A stretch of 44,198 bases of DNA from Escherichia phage vB_EcoS-EE09, in the sequence record OR756193.1; one strand, written 5' to 3'. This document shows, piece by piece, positions 1 to 44,198 of this stretch. A program made the position numbers and the translations under genes. Below the pieces are notes generated by a model that made no database searches, was not told the origin of the DNA, and saw nothing but the letters and a program-made list of their open reading frames with translations. Numbering within the stretch: the stretch's first letter is position 1; each line of letters opens with the position of its first letter.

Positions 1-5
1 ATCTT

Positions 6-34
6 AAGGGTGTCCGGTTGGACGCCCTTTTTTA
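6..34 (+). terminator. rho-independent terminator-like hairpin at left edge of window
   Basis: Inverted repeat AGGGTGTCC-ggtt-GGACGCCCT (one G-U wobble) followed by a T6 run, directly upstream of RBS GGAGA and the ATG at 53. Confidence 0.5.
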
Positions 35-3131: not shown

Positions 3132-4952
3132 TTATTTCTTCAACGCCGCGATCTCGGCTTTCAAATCCTCCACTTCCGCCGACAGGCGTTTACACTCAGC
3201 GATCGCATATTGTGCGCACCCCATCAAGTCCATCACGATAGGGTTAACGTCTACCGACGGACGGTCGCGCGTCTTACCCCCGACGATGGCGTTAGTCTCG
3301 GGGTCCACCTCCACATCGTACGTCTCCTCTCGGTGTTTGATGTATTGAGGCGCAATCTCTTCTGCTTCCTCGGCAATGATGCCGAAGCGGACGCGCTCCT
3401 GCACATCGTCCTTATACACGTAGCGCACCATGCGCATTTGTTCAATGCGTGCAACCGCTTCGGTAACGTCCGCGTCGGTAATATCTTTCTTAAAGTCCCT
3501 TCCTGATGTACCCTGGAGGGCAATAACACCACCAGATGAGGGCCAGTTGACTGTGAAGCCAGTGCCGTCTCCCTTCTCAAAATATTTATAGATCAGGTTA
3601 CTATTGATATTAACCGTATCCCACATCGTGCGGAAGTTACCAGCCGGGACGGTAGCTTTTCCGTTGTTTAGAACGAAAGACAACGCTGAAGCTGTCTCTG
3701 TTGGGCGGACCGTGATATCTCGATGACTCATCATGCCGCTTATCCCCGATCCAGAGATCTCCATAACGGTATCGCGGTACGCGCCCGACGCGTCATATGA
3801 GTGCAACTTAAAATTGCCCGCGGCGTCGTTAATCCCCATGCGCCAGCGTACTTTATCGGCGGAATCAGCCCAACATACGCCACCAAAGCCCGACCCGTTC
3901 TGCTTAAGGATTAATCCATCTTGGGAGTCGCCGTTAGATTTGAATTGGCGGAACTCGGCGACGTTATCGCCGCGCCCCGTACCACCGAATGCAATCGGCA
4001 GCGGCATGGCTTTATTGTTGGCATTATCCCACCCGCCCCAGTCGCCATTTTCCTTAACGAAGATCCATTTATTCTTCGCCGCAGTCCTGATTTGTGTTTC
4101 GCCGCTGGTTATGTTTTGCGTTAGGCGGTCTACACCAATGTTTTCGCGCGCCACAGCCACATCCGCAACATCACTTAAGTTGTTGGCCTTCGCAAGTAGG
4201 TTTTCCGGGTTAACACTATTAGCGAATTGTTCGGCCTCATTGCGAAATCCTTGCGCGGCAGTGCGGGCAGCTTGCGCGTCCTCCTTCGCGGTATTGGCTT
4301 CATCACGAATAACGCCAGTGTCAGTCTTGATCTGATTCGTTTGGTCCTTGATCGCCTGCGTATCTGCCTTAAGTTGAGTGGTCTGGTCCTTGATCGCCTG
4401 CGTATCTGCCTTAAGTTGGCTGGTCTGCGTCTTGATGGTGTTGGCGTCGTTCTTGAAGCCTTCCGCCTCGTTACGGAATCCTTGCGCGGCTGCTTCCGAT
4501 GCGGCGGCTTGTTGTTGCAGGTTGCGCATCTCAACGGGGTCTACTTCCTTCAGCAAAGACGACAGGTAGCCCCACGACATACCCTGCATAACTTGCCCGT
4601 TCGGGAGCGTGACTGTGATTTCTTCAGCATCGCCGAAGATTGCACGCCAGTTGTTTTCATCTGCAATCATCAAGCGCAATGCTTTTTGGGCCTGTACGGT
4701 AACGCCCATCGTTGCCAGCGACATGGTATCGCGCTTAACGCCATCCCACGCAAGGCCGGTTGCCGTCGGGCCGTCGAACGGCAGCACCAGCGTAAGCGCC
4801 GTGTTACTTTCGATTGATGCGATCGCCACGGTGTAAGGCACTTGTCCTACCACCAGCGTTAAGAAGTCGCCAGCTTTAAACGCGGTAAACGTTGTGCCGA
4901 CCCCTACTACCGCCTTGCTGTTGTTCGTTACGGATAGAGTACCCGCTGCCAT
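3132..4952 (-). CDS. tail fibre protein with C-terminal intramolecular chaperone (peptidase S74-like) domain
   Basis: ORF track (track start at 4979 is a TTG inside the ATTGGTTGCA motif; ATG at 4952 with RBS GAGGA preferred); C-terminus has S-G-R-D-F-K-K-D-I followed by VRYVYKDD...RFGIIAEEAEEIAPQYI and a terminal coiled coil, the pattern of auto-cleaving chaperone domains of phage fibres. Confidence 0.75.
   Translation of the reverse strand: MAAGTLSVTNNSKAVVGVGTTFTAFKAGDFLTLVVGQVPYTVAIASIESNTALTLVLPFDGPTATGLAWDGVKRDTMSLATMGVTVQAQKALRLMIADENNWRAIFGDAEEITVTLPNGQVMQGMSWGYLSSLLKEVDPVEMRNLQQQAAASEAAAQGFRNEAEGFKNDANTIKTQTSQLKADTQAIKDQTTQLKADTQAIKDQTNQIKTDTGVIRDEANTAKEDAQAARTAAQGFRNEAEQFANSVNPENLLAKANNLSDVADVAVARENIGVDRLTQNITSGETQIRTAAKNKWIFVKENGDWGGWDNANNKAMPLPIAFGGTGRGDNVAEFRQFKSNGDSQDGLILKQNGSGFGGVCWADSADKVRWRMGINDAAGNFKLHSYDASGAYRDTVMEISGSGISGMMSHRDITVRPTETASALSFVLNNGKATVPAGNFRTMWDTVNINSNLIYKYFEKGDGTGFTVNWPSSGGVIALQGTSGRDFKKDITDADVTEAVARIEQMRMVRYVYKDDVQERVRFGIIAEEAEEIAPQYIKHREETYDVEVDPETNAIVGGKTRDRPSVDVNPIVMDLMGCAQYAIAECKRLSAEVEDLKAEIAALKK
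4341..4424 (-). repeat. two near-identical 42-bp tandem repeats inside the tail fibre gene
   Basis: TGGTCCTTGATCGCCTGCGTATCTGCCTTAAGTTG(A/G)(G/C)TGGTC twice with degenerate flanking copies; encodes 14-aa repeats (TQLKADTQAIKDQT-like). Confidence 0.8.
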
Positions 4953-10317: not shown

Positions 10318-11048
10318 TCTGTTATATTCCCCGGTAGGTCTTTATGACGTACCCATTTAACCACATTGTCCCGGAAAAATCCTGACCGGAAGGGTATCAC
10401 GCTCGACAGGCTGCCGTAGATATGGTGGAGTAGTTGGTTGCCAGGAAGGAATATCCCGGCATGGTTAGGTACTGGCGCGCTGATCTGCATGATAACCATC
10501 GCCCCCGGCGTATTCTCCTCGCATTCCCTGAAGCCAGCACCGTACCAATTATCCATATACAGATTTTCGCCTGTCTCCCACCAGTTATACGGCACGCGGA
10601 AGTCTGGCAAATTTACTCCCTGCTTTTTGTGCCAGTCCATGACGAGGCCGTAACAATCCGTAATTCCGAGAACAAATCGGCGGCCTACCAGCGGCGGGTC
10701 TTCCGGGTCTATCTCGATAAAGTCGCCATATTCGTTAGTGATGGTCCAGACGACGCCGCTGCCGTTGCATCCGTTAACGTCGCCCAGTGAGGGGGTTAAC
10801 TCGCGCTGACCCGGGTGTGAGTGGACTACGCGAACGACGTCGCCCATATCCTCGGCATCCATCCAGGCCATATCACTAATAGTAAATGCGTCTTTACGCG
10901 AACGCGCCCCGGTCGGGTCTTCGAAGACGTTAGGGCACGGGACAAAAACTTGCTTACGACCCACCATGACCACCAGGCCGCAGGCTTCTTCCGGCAGACA
11001 CGCCGCAACGTGCGCGGCGATATCGCTTTTAACCTTTTTCGTTAACAT
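10308..11048 (-). CDS. tail tip assembly protein, lambda K-like (MPN/JAMM plus NlpC/P60-like)
   Basis: JAMM-like H-S-H-P...S-L-G-D motif (VVRVVHSHPGQRELTPSLGD) followed by a Cys/His-containing C-terminal half. Confidence 0.75.
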   Translation of the reverse strand: MLTKKVKSDIAAHVAACLPEEACGLVVMVGRKQVFVPCPNVFEDPTGARSRKDAFTISDMAWMDAEDMGDVVRVVHSHPGQRELTPSLGDVNGCNGSGVVWTITNEYGDFIEIDPEDPPLVGRRFVLGITDCYGLVMDWHKKQGVNLPDFRVPYNWWETGENLYMDNWYGAGFRECEENTPGAMVIMQISAPVPNHAGIFLPGNQLLHHIYGSLSSVIPFRSGFFRDNVVKWVRHKDLPGNITEWQ

Positions 11049-15094: not shown

Positions 15095-15420
15095 AAACCT
15101 TATTCAGTCTCAGACGAGGGGGGCCGTTGACCCCCGTCTAGTCTGAAAGACTGGAGTTTGTCCCGCCTGTCCCGATCGGCTGAAAACCGCGGCAGCACTG
15201 GCGGGGACGGGGTGCTGTCCCGCTTTGTCCCGCCCCTGGTCTGTCCCGCTTTCTGTCCCGTTTGGTTTATGCAGATTTCGTGCATAGGTATGCACACTTA
15301 GAGGGTGGGACAAAGCGGGACGTCCCGCCTGTCCCGCTTTGGGTTTATGCAGTGGGAGTGAGTAGATATGCAGTTTTACAGAGGCGGGACAAAACGGGAC
15401 GTCCCGCCTGTCCCGCTTCA
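15095..15420. repeat. non-coding structured element: hairpin plus arrays of GTCCCGC direct and inverted repeats
   Basis: Hairpin AGACGAGGGGGG-ccgttga-CCCCCGTCT, then at least eight GTCCCGC units (for example GGGACAAAGCGGGACGTCCCGCCTGTCCCGC) and recurring TTTATGCA; a diverged second copy lies at about 31670-31800. Confidence 0.7.
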
Positions 15421-31669: not shown

Positions 31670-31800
31670 GGATTTTATTCAGTCTCAGACGAGGGGGGCC
31701 GTTGACCCCCGTCTAGTCTGAAAGACTGGGGTGCTGTCCCGCTTTGTCCCGCCTAGTGTTTGTCCCGCTTTTTGTCCCGTTTGGTTTATGCAATAAAACT
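31670..31800. repeat. second copy of the hairpin plus GTCCCGC-array element
   Basis: TTATTCAGTCTCAGACGAGGGGGGCCGTTGACCCCCGTCTAGTCTGAAAGACTGG...GTCCCGCTTTGTCCCGCC...GTTTGGTTTATGCA matches the copy at about 15095-15285 apart from a roughly 50-bp internal deletion and a few substitutions. Confidence 0.7.
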
Positions 31801-31940: not shown

Positions 31941-34282
31941 TTAATCTTTCAGGTCATCATCGGTCGCCGAAAGCGTGATGGGTATATTTGTTTTGATGAC
32001 GATATTCGACGACCCATAGATGGCCCCGGTGTGCGGATCTGTATAAAAACCTAGCACGCCGCGATCCACCATATCGTCTATTGCCTTCGTCGATGTGCCA
32101 CCTTTTGCCAATCCCGCCTGGCGGACGATTGCCGATTTACTGAATCCGGTATGGTCCGGGTTATCTTCCATCAGTTTTTCCAGTGCCGCATAAAGCACTT
32201 TCTCTTTTTCGTTGCGCGGCCCCGCGGCATTTTCTTCCTTAACTGCGGCTTTGCCAGCGGCCTTTGCCTGCTCAATAGCGAACGGTGCCAGGGCGACCGG
32301 TACGAGATACAGAGTCTCGTCGCGTGGCGTGGACGCGATCGGCTTGACGTCCCAACCGGCAACCACATCGCCGAAGTCAGGCCCGGTGCTGGTGGACTGG
32401 TGCGATTCGAACGCCTCGGACTTGCGGAGATCCACCTTAACCTTGCACTTGAGCAGGACGAATCCGCGCGGCGCTTGCTTGATGCCGTTACGTGCCTTTT
32501 CGTGATACAGGTTCAATTGGCCTGGTTGATTGTCGTCCGGTTGCTCCAGGAAGAACGCAGAATCAACAGCACCATGCAGCGCGCCGGACCCGCGTGGGGA
32601 TCTGCTGCCGTTTGCACCCTTCGCCGGGTGGTGGATGACGCCCGCACTGCCGCCTGTATTTTCCGCGATGGCCTTCAGCGCCTTGACCACTTCGCCCATA
32701 TCGCTGGCGTTGTTCTCGTCGAACGGTTTAGCATCGGCGGACCGCAGCGCAACAGTCTGGTTGAGTGAGTCGAACGCCACCAGGCCAACCGGTTCGCCGT
32801 TAGCGGTGCGGTTGATAAAGCTGATAACTTCACGCAAGCCGGATTTGCTGGTGATATCCCAGCCGCGAGATTGCAGGTCGATAATGTGCAGCTTGTCCAG
32901 GTCGTGCTCATATTTGATCTGCAATGCTTCCTTACGCTGGTTGGAGGCTTCGCCACCTTCCGCGTCGAAATAGAAGCAATGAGACTGGACGACCTTCGCA
33001 CCACCGAACGGGATCCCCGCGGCAACCGCACCCATTTGGCCCAGCACGTAGAACGATTTACCGATGTTCGATTCGCCAGCCATATACCAGGTCGATTTGA
33101 AGTTGACCAGGCCTTCTATGATCGGGTCGTGCTTACTGAACAGTGCGACCGGTTCGTTATCCAGGTCAGCGTCGGTACATACGCCGTACTCGTCGCCGTC
33201 TCCGACCGCATCAACGATATGCGCATAGCACGATTCCACTTCCTCGTCGTCCAGTCCTGGGAGGATGGCGGCGATTTGCTTACGTGACATGTTGTGCGGT
33301 TCGACGTTCAGGTGGTCCGGGATCCCGATAAGACGTAGCGCCAGGTGCTGGTGTCTGTTCAGTTCCGAGCAACACTCGTTGCCGGTGTGCATACACTTGA
33401 AACGGATCTCGCCATCCTTAACCATGATAGCGGTGGACCCTTCGCCGCTGTGCAGGTGTTCGTTCGGGCATGGCACTTCATAACCACGACCGGACGACAG
33501 CGGTTCGAATCCTGCCTGGAAGCACCAGTCCAGAATTCCGTCCGTTACGCCAGCGTCGCCCTGGGTCAGTTCGCGGCGCACTTCCTCTTTTTCCACTCCC
33601 CGCTTATCAGCCAGGCGGAGCAGACGACGGACGCGGGCGCGCTTGCCATAGTGGCACTTAATAACAGACTGCTGGTGTGGCAGGTACATCAGGCGGTTTG
33701 TGTCTTTCGTGCAGTCGTCGAAGTCCACATCGGACAAACCAAGTTGGTGTAATAGCGCATACTGGACGCGGCCCAGGTCTTCCGCCGGTACAGGCTTGTC
33801 GGTCAACACCAGGAAACGGGCGCAACGCGTGGCGCATACTGGACGCGGCCCAGGTCTTCCGCCGGTACAGGCTTGTCGGTCAACACCAGGAAACGGGCGC
33901 AACGCGTGCCGCCTTTCAGCGGGTGGCGGTCGCCGGTTGTGGTGTGAAATACGTGTTCCAGCCCCGCGTCAATGAACGCCTTACGGCAGCGGCGTAGGGT
34001 GCGGGTGTCGGTACGGTCGATATCAAAGAACAGGATCGAGCGGTCCACCGCACTGGTCTTACGACGCAATCCGTCACTGGTATACGCCACGATGCCATCG
34101 GCCTTACGCTTGCGGCGCGCATACTCGGCTTTATCTTCCGTCTTATTGATATGCACCGAGGAGATTTCTTTCGCATCATTGATAAATTCGAAAAATTCAT
34201 CGGTGGTCATCTGGAAGTTTTCCGCCCTGGCTTTTTCGCCTTTTTTAGCGGGTCTTGTTACAGCGAATTTAATTAAGCTCAT
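31941..34282 (-). pseudogene. DNA primase-helicase (AEP/PrimPol-like N-domain plus P-loop NTPase), frame broken by a 77-bp tandem duplication
   Basis: N-terminal ORF (33803-34282) has the AEP motif LFFDIDR and a conserved His; the C-terminal ORF (31941-33902) has a Cys/His cluster and Walker A GESNIGKS; both contain TRCARFLVLTDKPVPAEDLGRVQYA; removing one 77-bp copy gives a single 2265-nt (754-codon) frame. Confidence 0.7.
33755..33908. repeat. perfect 77-bp tandem direct duplication (two copies)
   Basis: 33755-33831 is identical to 33832-33908 (GCGCATACTGGACGCGGCCCAGGTCTTCCGCCGGTACAGGCTTGTCGGTCAACACCAGGAAACGGGCGCAACGCGTG). Confidence 0.9.
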
Positions 34283-34292
34283 TGCCGTGGCC

Positions 34293-34622
34293 TTACTTAG
34301 AAGTTTTATTATTGCGTACCCAGGAGCGCACTGTGCTCTGATTAATTCCGGTCAACTCGGCAATCATCGCCCAGGATTTGCCCTCGGCGCGCAAACGGAT
34401 AACCTGTTTTTTGTATTCTTCCATTTCTTCATTGTGCTTTTGCAGCTTGCTTGCTGCAGTACCGTTGAGTAATTCCAGCTTCGCGCGCAATTCTTTTTCG
34501 GTAAGTCGCAGACGTTCGATTTCAAATAGCACCGCACCCACGGCATCGGTATACGCCCATGACCGGCTTGTTTCACTGCTAACAGTCTTCGTTAACATTT
34601 CGATTGCGTCGTTTACATTCAT
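34293..34622 (-). CDS. small HTH DNA-binding protein (109 aa), putative regulator
   Basis: Coiled-coil-like N-terminus and C-terminal helix-turn-helix-like KSWAMIAELTGINQSTVRSWV; first gene of the leftward unit. Confidence 0.55.
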   Translation of the reverse strand: MNVNDAIEMLTKTVSSETSRSWAYTDAVGAVLFEIERLRLTEKELRAKLELLNGTAASKLQKHNEEMEEYKKQVIRLRAEGKSWAMIAELTGINQSTVRSWVRNNKTSK

Positions 34623-35024: not shown

Positions 35025-35543
35025 ATGTTTGAGCAAATCGTAAACCTGATCACTCGCGGCGTAGTAGCACTGGAAACCATCGCTAAACATTATGAAACCG
35101 TTGGCGCTGCCGTTGGTAAGCAGGAAGACAAGAAGCCGTCTAAGGCCAAAAAAGAAGTTGTCGAAGATGACGACGATGAAGTCGAAGACGAAAAACCGGC
35201 TAAATCTAAAAAAGCCCCGGCGAAAGGTAAATCCAAAAAAGAAGTCGTAGAAGATGACGACGACGAGGATGCCGAAGATGAAAAACCGGCTAAGTCTAAA
35301 AAAGCACCGGCGAAAGGCAAAGGTAAGAAAGATGCCGATCCGCTGGCGGAGATGCGCGACGAAATCAAACAGTATGCCGCGATTATCGCCGGTGGCGATG
35401 ACGACGATGCGAACGACGAATTCGACGACCTGCTGGAATCGTTCGAGATCAAATCAATCGCCAAGCTGGAAGATGACGACGTCGAAGACTTCCACAAAGA
35501 GCTAAAAGAAATCGTCGAAACCTATTTCGAACTGGAAGATTAA
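35025..35543 (+). CDS. highly charged repeat protein (172 aa), first gene of the rightward early operon
   Basis: ORF track trimmed to the ATG with RBS GGAGA 6 nt upstream; two tandem ~29-aa repeats KKEVVEDDDDE..EDEKPAKSKKAPAKGK; strongly acidic C-terminal half. Confidence 0.65.
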   Translation: MFEQIVNLITRGVVALETIAKHYETVGAAVGKQEDKKPSKAKKEVVEDDDDEVEDEKPAKSKKAPAKGKSKKEVVEDDDDEDAEDEKPAKSKKAPAKGKGKKDADPLAEMRDEIKQYAAIIAGGDDDDANDEFDDLLESFEIKSIAKLEDDDVEDFHKELKEIVETYFELED

Positions 35544-37787: not shown

Positions 37788-38573
37788 ATGGCTAAAGTCA
37801 ACCTGAAAAATGTGCGTGTATGTTTCCTGAAAATTTGGGAACGTGATACCCCTAAACAGGATGGACAAAAACCGGCATACCGTGCCGTGATTCTTCTTGA
37901 TAAAGAAGATCCGCAGGTGGACAAAGTGGAAGCGGCAGCGCGCGCAGTGCTCACCGACAAGCTGAAATCTGAGAAGAATGCCGATAAGTGGATGGACCGC
38001 CACTACGCCCAGGATTCTAAGGAATGCGCAGTTCGTGACGGTGACGAGCGCGACGAAGTAACCGAAGAATTCGAAGGCATGTTGTACATCAACGCTAAAT
38101 CGTTCAAACAGCCAAACATTCAAACGTCACTCGGCGAGAAGCAGACCGAACAGGGTCTGACCGTAGAAGGCGACGAGATCGAAGGCCAGGAGATCTACTC
38201 CGGTTGTTATTGCAACGTGTCCCTTGATATCTGGGCGTGGAACAATACCAACGGCAAGGGACTCGGTGCTGGCTTGCTGGGTTTACGCTTCCGTGATGAC
38301 GGTGAAGCCTTCGGGGGTGGCGGGTCTTCTTGCTCCGATGAAGACCTGGACAACGACGACGAAGACGAAGCACCGCGCAAGTCCAAAAAGTCAAAACGTC
38401 GTGATGACGATGATGAAGATGACAAGCCGCGCAAGTCCAAGAAATCCAAGCGCCGCGATGACGACGACGATGAGGAAGATGAAAAACCTCGCAAACGTCG
38501 TAAGCCACGCGATGACGAAGATGAGGACGACGACGACGAAGACGAAGCGCCACGTAAACGTCGCCGCCGTTAA
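37788..38573 (+). CDS. DUF2815-like putative ssDNA-binding protein with charged repeat tail
   Basis: ORF track trimmed to the ATG with RBS GAGGA 7 nt upstream; MAKVNLKNVRV... N-terminus; C-terminal ~85 aa of tandem PRKSKKSKRRDDDDED-type repeats. Confidence 0.55.
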   Translation: MAKVNLKNVRVCFLKIWERDTPKQDGQKPAYRAVILLDKEDPQVDKVEAAARAVLTDKLKSEKNADKWMDRHYAQDSKECAVRDGDERDEVTEEFEGMLYINAKSFKQPNIQTSLGEKQTEQGLTVEGDEIEGQEIYSGCYCNVSLDIWAWNNTNGKGLGAGLLGLRFRDDGEAFGGGGSSCSDEDLDNDDEDEAPRKSKKSKRRDDDDEDDKPRKSKKSKRRDDDDDEEDEKPRKRRKPRDDEDEDDDDEDEAPRKRRRR

Positions 38574-43849: not shown

Positions 43850-44169
43850 ATACTACATTCGAAGCCATTGATTTTTCGGTTGCAATGACTAACCAGTTAT
43901 TCTCCTACGACAGCAAAACCGGCGTCATTCGTCTGAAGTCCACCGGCTGCAAAATTGGCAACCTCAACACTGCCGATGGCGGCACGCGCATCGAATGCAA
44001 CGGCAAAACTCTATCGGGCGCACGCGTGGCGTGGATTATCGCGACCGGCAATACAATTCCTCCAGGCTACGCCGTTGTGTGCCGCCAGCGAACACCAGGC
44101 CACTACGGCAACCGAATCAGCAATCTGTATCTGGTAGACGTTGCACGCGACCCAAATTTTTATTCGTAA
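43846..44169 (+). CDS. HNH-endonuclease-like protein, possibly degenerate (107 aa)
   Basis: N-terminal F-S-Y-D-x-x-T-G and C-terminal G-N-R-I-S-N-L resemble phage HNH proteins, but the expected metal-binding His positions are not evident. Confidence 0.4.
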   Translation: MNTTFEAIDFSVAMTNQLFSYDSKTGVIRLKSTGCKIGNLNTADGGTRIECNGKTLSGARVAWIIATGNTIPPGYAVVCRQRTPGHYGNRISNLYLVDVARDPNFYS

Positions 44170-44196
44170 ATTGGTTGCATAATTAGATTGGTTGCA
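44170..44196 (+). promoter_or_regulatory. tandem ATTGGTTGCA motifs at the right edge of the window
   Basis: Two exact copies 17 bp apart immediately after the stop of the last gene, same tandem arrangement as at 20819-20841. Confidence 0.5.
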
Positions 44197-44198
44197 TT

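Follow-up and report, generated by a model that had tools for sequence, protein, structure and literature searches.

Escherichia phage vB_EcoS-EE09 (EE09) is an HK578-like siphovirus of E. coli, genus Dhillonvirus, and its genome is deposited as OR756193 with a length of 44,198 bp (accession and length from PMC10673088). All 44,198 nucleotides of this record were analysed, and we refer to this whole stretch of DNA as the window. On the minus strand, positions 31941-34282 (2342 nt as deposited) hold the replicative helicase-primase gene, which the record presents as two CDSs. CDS53 (33803-34282, minus strand) encodes the 159-aa protein WPH67459.1, named 'replicative DNA helicase', while CDS52 (31941-33806, minus strand) begins with a TTG at 33806 and encodes the 621-aa protein WPH67458.1, named 'putative helicase primase'. 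As annotated, the two CDSs overlap by 4 nt (supplementary annotation table). The ORF listing gives a 159-aa frame (33803-34282, minus strand) and a longer frame of 653 aa, also with a TTG start (31941-33902, minus strand). Both ORFs encode TRCARFLVLTDKPVPAEDLGRVQYA, in agreement with the first-pass annotation, in which they had been described as one gene split by a repeat.

The repeat consists of positions 33755-33831 and 33832-33908. As had been noticed earlier, these are two identical 77-nt units, 77 of 77 bases being the same on direct comparison. At the junction between the copies (33831/33832), GGGCGCAACGCGTG is joined to GCGCATACTGGACG, and the sequence spanning the junction is GGGCGCAACGCGTGGCGCATACTGGACG. 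TRF on the window reports a period of 77, 2.1 copies and a score of 309, and the 77-nt periodicity extends 0 nt beyond either flank. In a scan of the window for tandem duplications with a period of 30-199 and an identity of at least 93%, the 77-nt pair is the sole tandem duplication, barring a diverged 42-nt in-frame repeat. Because 77 = 3 x 25 + 2, the reading frame shifts at the repeat and gene callers split the gene.

Deletion of one copy in silico repairs the gene. The 2342-nt span minus one copy leaves 2265 nt, which read as 754 codons plus a stop without any internal stop, and the continuous frame claimed in the first-pass annotation is thereby confirmed. The last 9 residues of WPH67459.1 (PRVAPVSWC) are out-of-frame read-through, and this protein covers positions 3-152 only of the phrog_3228 profile ('replicative helicase-primase'). 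The repaired protein, by comparison, aligns to the same profile in one stretch, with residues 1-752 matching positions 3-765 of 766 (E=0). Residues 357-531 of the repaired protein match AAA_25, the RepA-type helicase core (E=6e-19). The N-terminal part had been described as PrimPol-like. Here, a weak match of residues 24-177 to phrog_9765 'DNA primase' (E=4.5e-6) speaks for a primase, while Pfam and PDB sequence searches returned nothing significant for this domain and the PrimPol label itself finds no Pfam match.

The helicase-primase gene adjoins a gene for a 109-aa helix-turn-helix protein (34293-34622, minus strand) that is named 'putative transposase' in OR756193. In relatives, near-identical proteins go by the names Gam nuclease inhibitor, resolvase, transposase, NarL/FixJ regulator or HTH protein. 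The name is inconsistent among records and has probably been propagated from one to another.

The helicase-primase region is matched by 158 phage records with an identity of ~93-94%, and 144 related phage records cover the region. Among the matches listed, the relatives span 2524 nt compared to 2601 nt in the query, a shortfall of exactly 77 nt, with PQ843332.1 as the one exception. Again among the matches listed, the relatives carry a single 2265-nt CDS named 'replicative helicase/primase'. For example, phage JLBYU60 has one copy of the 77-nt unit. PQ843332.1 fills the 2601-nt query span, and its extra 77 nt are a different period-77 repeat, located at the start of the gene.

At the protein level, the repaired product is 98% identical over 100% of the length to the cluster representative P0001 (754 aa). 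This 754-aa product was aligned to homologues, a check proposed in the first-pass annotation; the alignment with 13 of them has no indel across the repeat junction. The duplicated peptide sits within RFLVLT.KP, a block that is conserved in the N-terminal domain. The phrog_3228 helicase-primases found in Dhillonvirus and related siphoviruses, such as JLBYU60_50 (UGO55306.1) and gp48 of Sodalis phage SO-1 (YP_003344983.1), are like the repaired EE09 protein. We find no biological difference between them and EE09: the deposited annotation alone differs, with two CDSs in the place of one.

These comparisons bear on a first alternative, in which this lineage naturally has a split or recoded gene, with two subunits or a programmed frameshift. 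The two CDSs annotated by the depositors, with their 4-nt overlap, would be in line with such an arrangement. However, all 327 homologues listed at a cut-off of E<=1e-50, down to 44% identity (range 44-98%), are single proteins, most of them of ~750-780 aa, and the sole short one is a 424-aa fragment that comes from a 1362-nt contig. A natural split, which the first-pass annotation had named as the observation that would count against a broken gene, was looked for among these 327 and none was found. We read 40 of the 517 cluster members; the 15 members listed are 754 aa each, save the two EE09 fragments (159 aa and 621 aa). Furthermore, the split vanishes exactly on removal of one copy, and phrog_3228 aligns across it in one stretch. 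We consider a natural split or recoding of the gene extremely improbable.

A second alternative is that the sequenced phage stock genuinely carries a 77-bp tandem duplication of very recent origin, either fixed or present in a defective or sub-population variant, which would leave the helicase-primase in two polypeptides. In its favour, the duplication is present in the sequence as deposited. Against it, the flanking microhomology often expected of such an event is not there: none was found on either side of window positions 33755-33908. The duplication is also not found in more than 140 relatives, and the break falls within the conserved RFLVLT.KP block. The split proteins belong to the OR756193 record alone, since an exact look-up in ~15 billion proteins places WPH67458.1 and WPH67459.1 each on one contig, that of OR756193. 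The repaired 754-aa protein has no exact match in the same collection, Logan/ENA assemblies included, and we found no independent assembly of the EE09 stock there.

The junction itself was searched for in two further collections. With blastn against the phage collection, each 'full' match turned out to be two pieces re-using a single unit, and the junction was found nowhere else. An exact 28-mer scan of IMG/VR gave 0 matches to the junction, with low power at ~94% identity: the single-copy control 28-mer gave only 1.

EE09 is plaque-forming and its burst sizes have been measured (PMC10673088). A frameshift in the sole replicative helicase-primase is therefore hard to reconcile with a phage that forms plaques and has a burst, and the normal growth of EE09 weighs against a genuine duplication.

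The history of the deposited sequence bears on where the repeat comes from. For EE09, NovaSeq paired-end reads were assembled with SPAdes 3.10, after which the genome was "reordered" with PhageTerm (PMC10673088). The PhageTerm report on the input contig places the termini at 10368 (left) and 10377 (right), with the type COS (5') and the cohesive sequence ATCTTAAGGG (PMC10673088 supplement). The window opens with ATCTTAAGGG. Accordingly, the PhageTerm-predicted 'cos 5'' at positions 1-10 (plus strand) is the rotation point and corresponds to positions 10368-10377 of the input contig. In alignments to Pandora71 and BF9, the end and the start of the window abut without gap or overlap, and the window is therefore a full circle opened at this point.

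Rotation to the start of a reference genome was also considered as the origin of position 1 and was rejected. The start of the window has no match among the starts of 142 related records, none of which begins there, and the PhageTerm cos call explains the start instead.

We undid the rotation (by 10367). Old base 1 then corresponds to window position 44198-10367+1 = 33832 and the old end to window position 33831. The old contig ends thus coincide to the base with the boundary between the 77-nt copies: copy 1 (33755-33831) is the last 77 nt of the pre-PhageTerm SPAdes contig (old 44122-44198) and copy 2 (33832-33908) is its first 77 nt (old 1-77). The reconstructed contig of 44,198 nt starts with GCGCATACTGG, its first 77 nt are identical to its last 77 nt, its longest terminal overlap is 77, and ATCTTAAGGG lies at 10368-10377. 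By our estimate, a base-exact coincidence of this kind would occur by chance in about 1 in 44,000 cases (~1 in 44,000).

The length of the repeat can be related to the assembler. From the paper's Table S3, the mapped reads have a mean length of 11681.26 x 44198 / 3571163 = 144.6 nt. This mean fits reads of the 150-nt class. For reads of at least 150 nt, the default largest k of SPAdes is 77. The repeat length of 77 nt equals this largest k, a value that we infer from the default and that is unstated in PMC10673088.

Identical ends of k-mer length have been described in SPAdes phage assemblies, where the phenomenon is the same (10.1101/2022.06.14.493971), and a mitochondrial contig has been reported with its first and last 77 bp identical (PMC8767329). 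The PhageTerm output genome is 'reorganized according to termini positions' (PMC5557969), which amounts to a rotation; the sentence is silent on the trimming of terminal overlaps.

Taken together, the duplication is almost certainly an assembly and finishing artefact in OR756193, a k-mer overlap internalised by rotation. SPAdes, with a largest k of 77 and ~150-nt reads, would have traversed a circular path in the de Bruijn graph and opened the circle at an arbitrary 77-mer, which by chance lay inside the helicase-primase gene. The same 77-mer would then have been written at both ends of the linear 44,198-nt contig, and this terminal overlap would have been left untrimmed. PhageTerm, treating the contig as a circle, would have restarted it at the predicted cos (old 10368) and joined the old end to the old start, which would give the internal head-to-tail 77+77-nt repeat at 33755-33908. 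Gene callers would then return two CDSs, of 159 aa and 621 aa. Pilon never saw the junction because it was run before the rotation, and we infer that reads spanning the junction are absent.

The terminal k-mer overlap of circular SPAdes contigs (identical ends of 55, 77 or 127 nt) is normally trimmed before circularisation. The EE09 repeat resembles such an overlap in its length of 77, in its perfect copies and in its location at the original contig ends. It differs from the usual case in being untrimmed and in lying in the interior after the PhageTerm reordering. The overlap in EE09 therefore appears as an internal, gene-frameshifting tandem duplication and not as a terminal direct repeat.

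The base-exact match to the contig ends rules out real duplications of any length but 77 nt. A real duplication is compatible with the match if its length is exactly 77 nt because, by de Bruijn logic, the k=77 graph would break there too and the main contig would look alike, with identical 77-nt ends. Nonetheless, the length of such a duplication must equal the k of the assembler by chance. If the duplication were carried by a minority variant, the consensus, which is backed by a coverage of ~11,700x (PhageTerm supplement), would not write the minority sequence. On balance, a genuine recent duplication is very unlikely. Less probable again is the specific case in which the EE09 stock carries a true 77-bp duplication and is viable with its primase-helicase split in the middle of the N-terminal domain, or is a mixture in which intact genomes provide complementation.

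The first-pass annotation had spoken of a fresh duplication and had listed three origins for it, an assembly artefact, a defective variant and an unstable hotspot. The first of these is the one that the match to the contig ends, the length equal to a k of 77 and the unsplit gene of the relatives bear out. In the light of the same three observations (the boundary at the SPAdes contig ends, the length and a gene unbroken in the relatives examined), the fresh duplication, the defective variant and the hotspot find no support. One of the two 77-nt copies is redundant. Most likely, the real genome is ~44,121 bp long, with one copy of the unit and one intact gene for a 754-aa helicase-primase.

The exceptional record among the relatives shows period-77 repeats on a different scale. 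PQ843332.1 (Escherichia phage P-GXEC-L2P5) is also a Dhillonvirus, and at 88,607 bp it is about two genome lengths long. Its positions 1-50000 (L006) contain 49 near-perfect tandem duplications, every one with a period of 77, and no repeat of any other period was found in these first 50 kb in the scan of periods 30-199. Many of the repeats have 1-4 mismatches, and they fall in all kinds of genes as well as in intergenic regions. Examples in the stretch L001 of this record are found at 607-760, 3850-4003 and 4565-4716. Since 49 of 49 repeats have a period of 77, this number is a signature of the assembler in public records of Dhillonvirus.

PQ843332.1 is like EE09 in its genus, in the repeat period of 77 and in having genes that are disrupted or padded. 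It is unlike EE09 in having 49 repeats in 50 kb, many of them mismatched, compared to a single perfect junction. This pattern suggests that edges of a mixed-population assembly graph were concatenated with their k=77 overlaps untrimmed, and the record looks heavily corrupted.

The period-77 repeat in the helicase-primase gene of PQ843332.1 could also be taken as a sign of a recurrent duplication hotspot in the helicase-primase genes of Dhillonvirus. However, the repeats of PQ843332.1 number 49, are spread over 50 kb and include none of another period between 30 and 199. The repeat in question (L001 3850-4003) is thus just one among many artefacts of the assembler. Moreover, it is situated at the beginning of the helicase-primase gene, a different position from that of the EE09 repeat. 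A recurrent hotspot is accordingly as improbable to us as a naturally split gene. In its gene-specific form, a hotspot is ruled out by the period scan of PQ843332.1.

We ascribe no biological significance to the EE09 repeat, which is a matter of data quality: OR756193 is 77 nt too long, its true length being ~44,121 bp. CDS53 is an artefactual N-terminal fragment and CDS52 an artefactual C-terminal fragment of the gene, which without the redundant copy measures 2265 nt (754 aa). WPH67458.1 and WPH67459.1 are accordingly spurious proteins in databases and are also included in the published CDS count of 69, and CDS52 and CDS53 are to be merged as one 754-aa helicase-primase. For triage, we propose that internal tandem duplications with perfect copies and a length of 55, 77, 99 or 127 nt be taken for rotated k-mer overlaps unless reads prove the contrary. 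This rule applies to short-read assemblies of phages, plasmids and organelles. PQ843332.1 illustrates how badly the error of untrimmed overlaps can scale.

The cos 5' call that stands behind position 1 of the window looks weak. The PhageTerm 'cos 5'' peaks have a T of only 0.30 and 0.36, and rival peaks elsewhere reach 0.21-0.34. An intrinsic-terminator hairpin lies at 6-29 and is followed by a T-run; its 5' arm shares bases with the 10-nt 'cohesive' sequence, and a gene for an HNH endonuclease lies directly upstream of this hairpin (window 1-32 and 44150-44198). Based on synteny with PQ843332.1, the terminase gene is roughly 18-20 kb from the window start. The true termini and the packaging mode may be different from those called.

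In contrast to the artefactual 77-nt pair, the window also has genuine tandem repeats, at 35146-35321 (plus strand), 38337-38557 (plus strand) and 4318-4401. Their periods are 90, 54 and 42 nt, each a multiple of 3, and their units are diverged, with 76-92% identity. The 90-nt repeat codes for acidic and lysine-rich units (KKEVVEDDDDE...KPAKSKKAPAKGK) and has a counterpart in a relative (L001 4919-5092).

Finally, a module of ~120 nt is found in two intergenic regions that lie 16.5 kb apart, at 15100-15273 and 15304-15418 in the first and at 31675-31792 in the second, with 98% and 91% identity. The second of these copies is located just downstream of the helicase-primase gene. In the module, arrays of (T)GTCCCGC(TTT) follow a hairpin-like element, and in a relative a 12-nt-period CTGTCCCGCTTT array occupies the corresponding place (L001 1435-1483). 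The module may comprise sites for regulation or protein binding.
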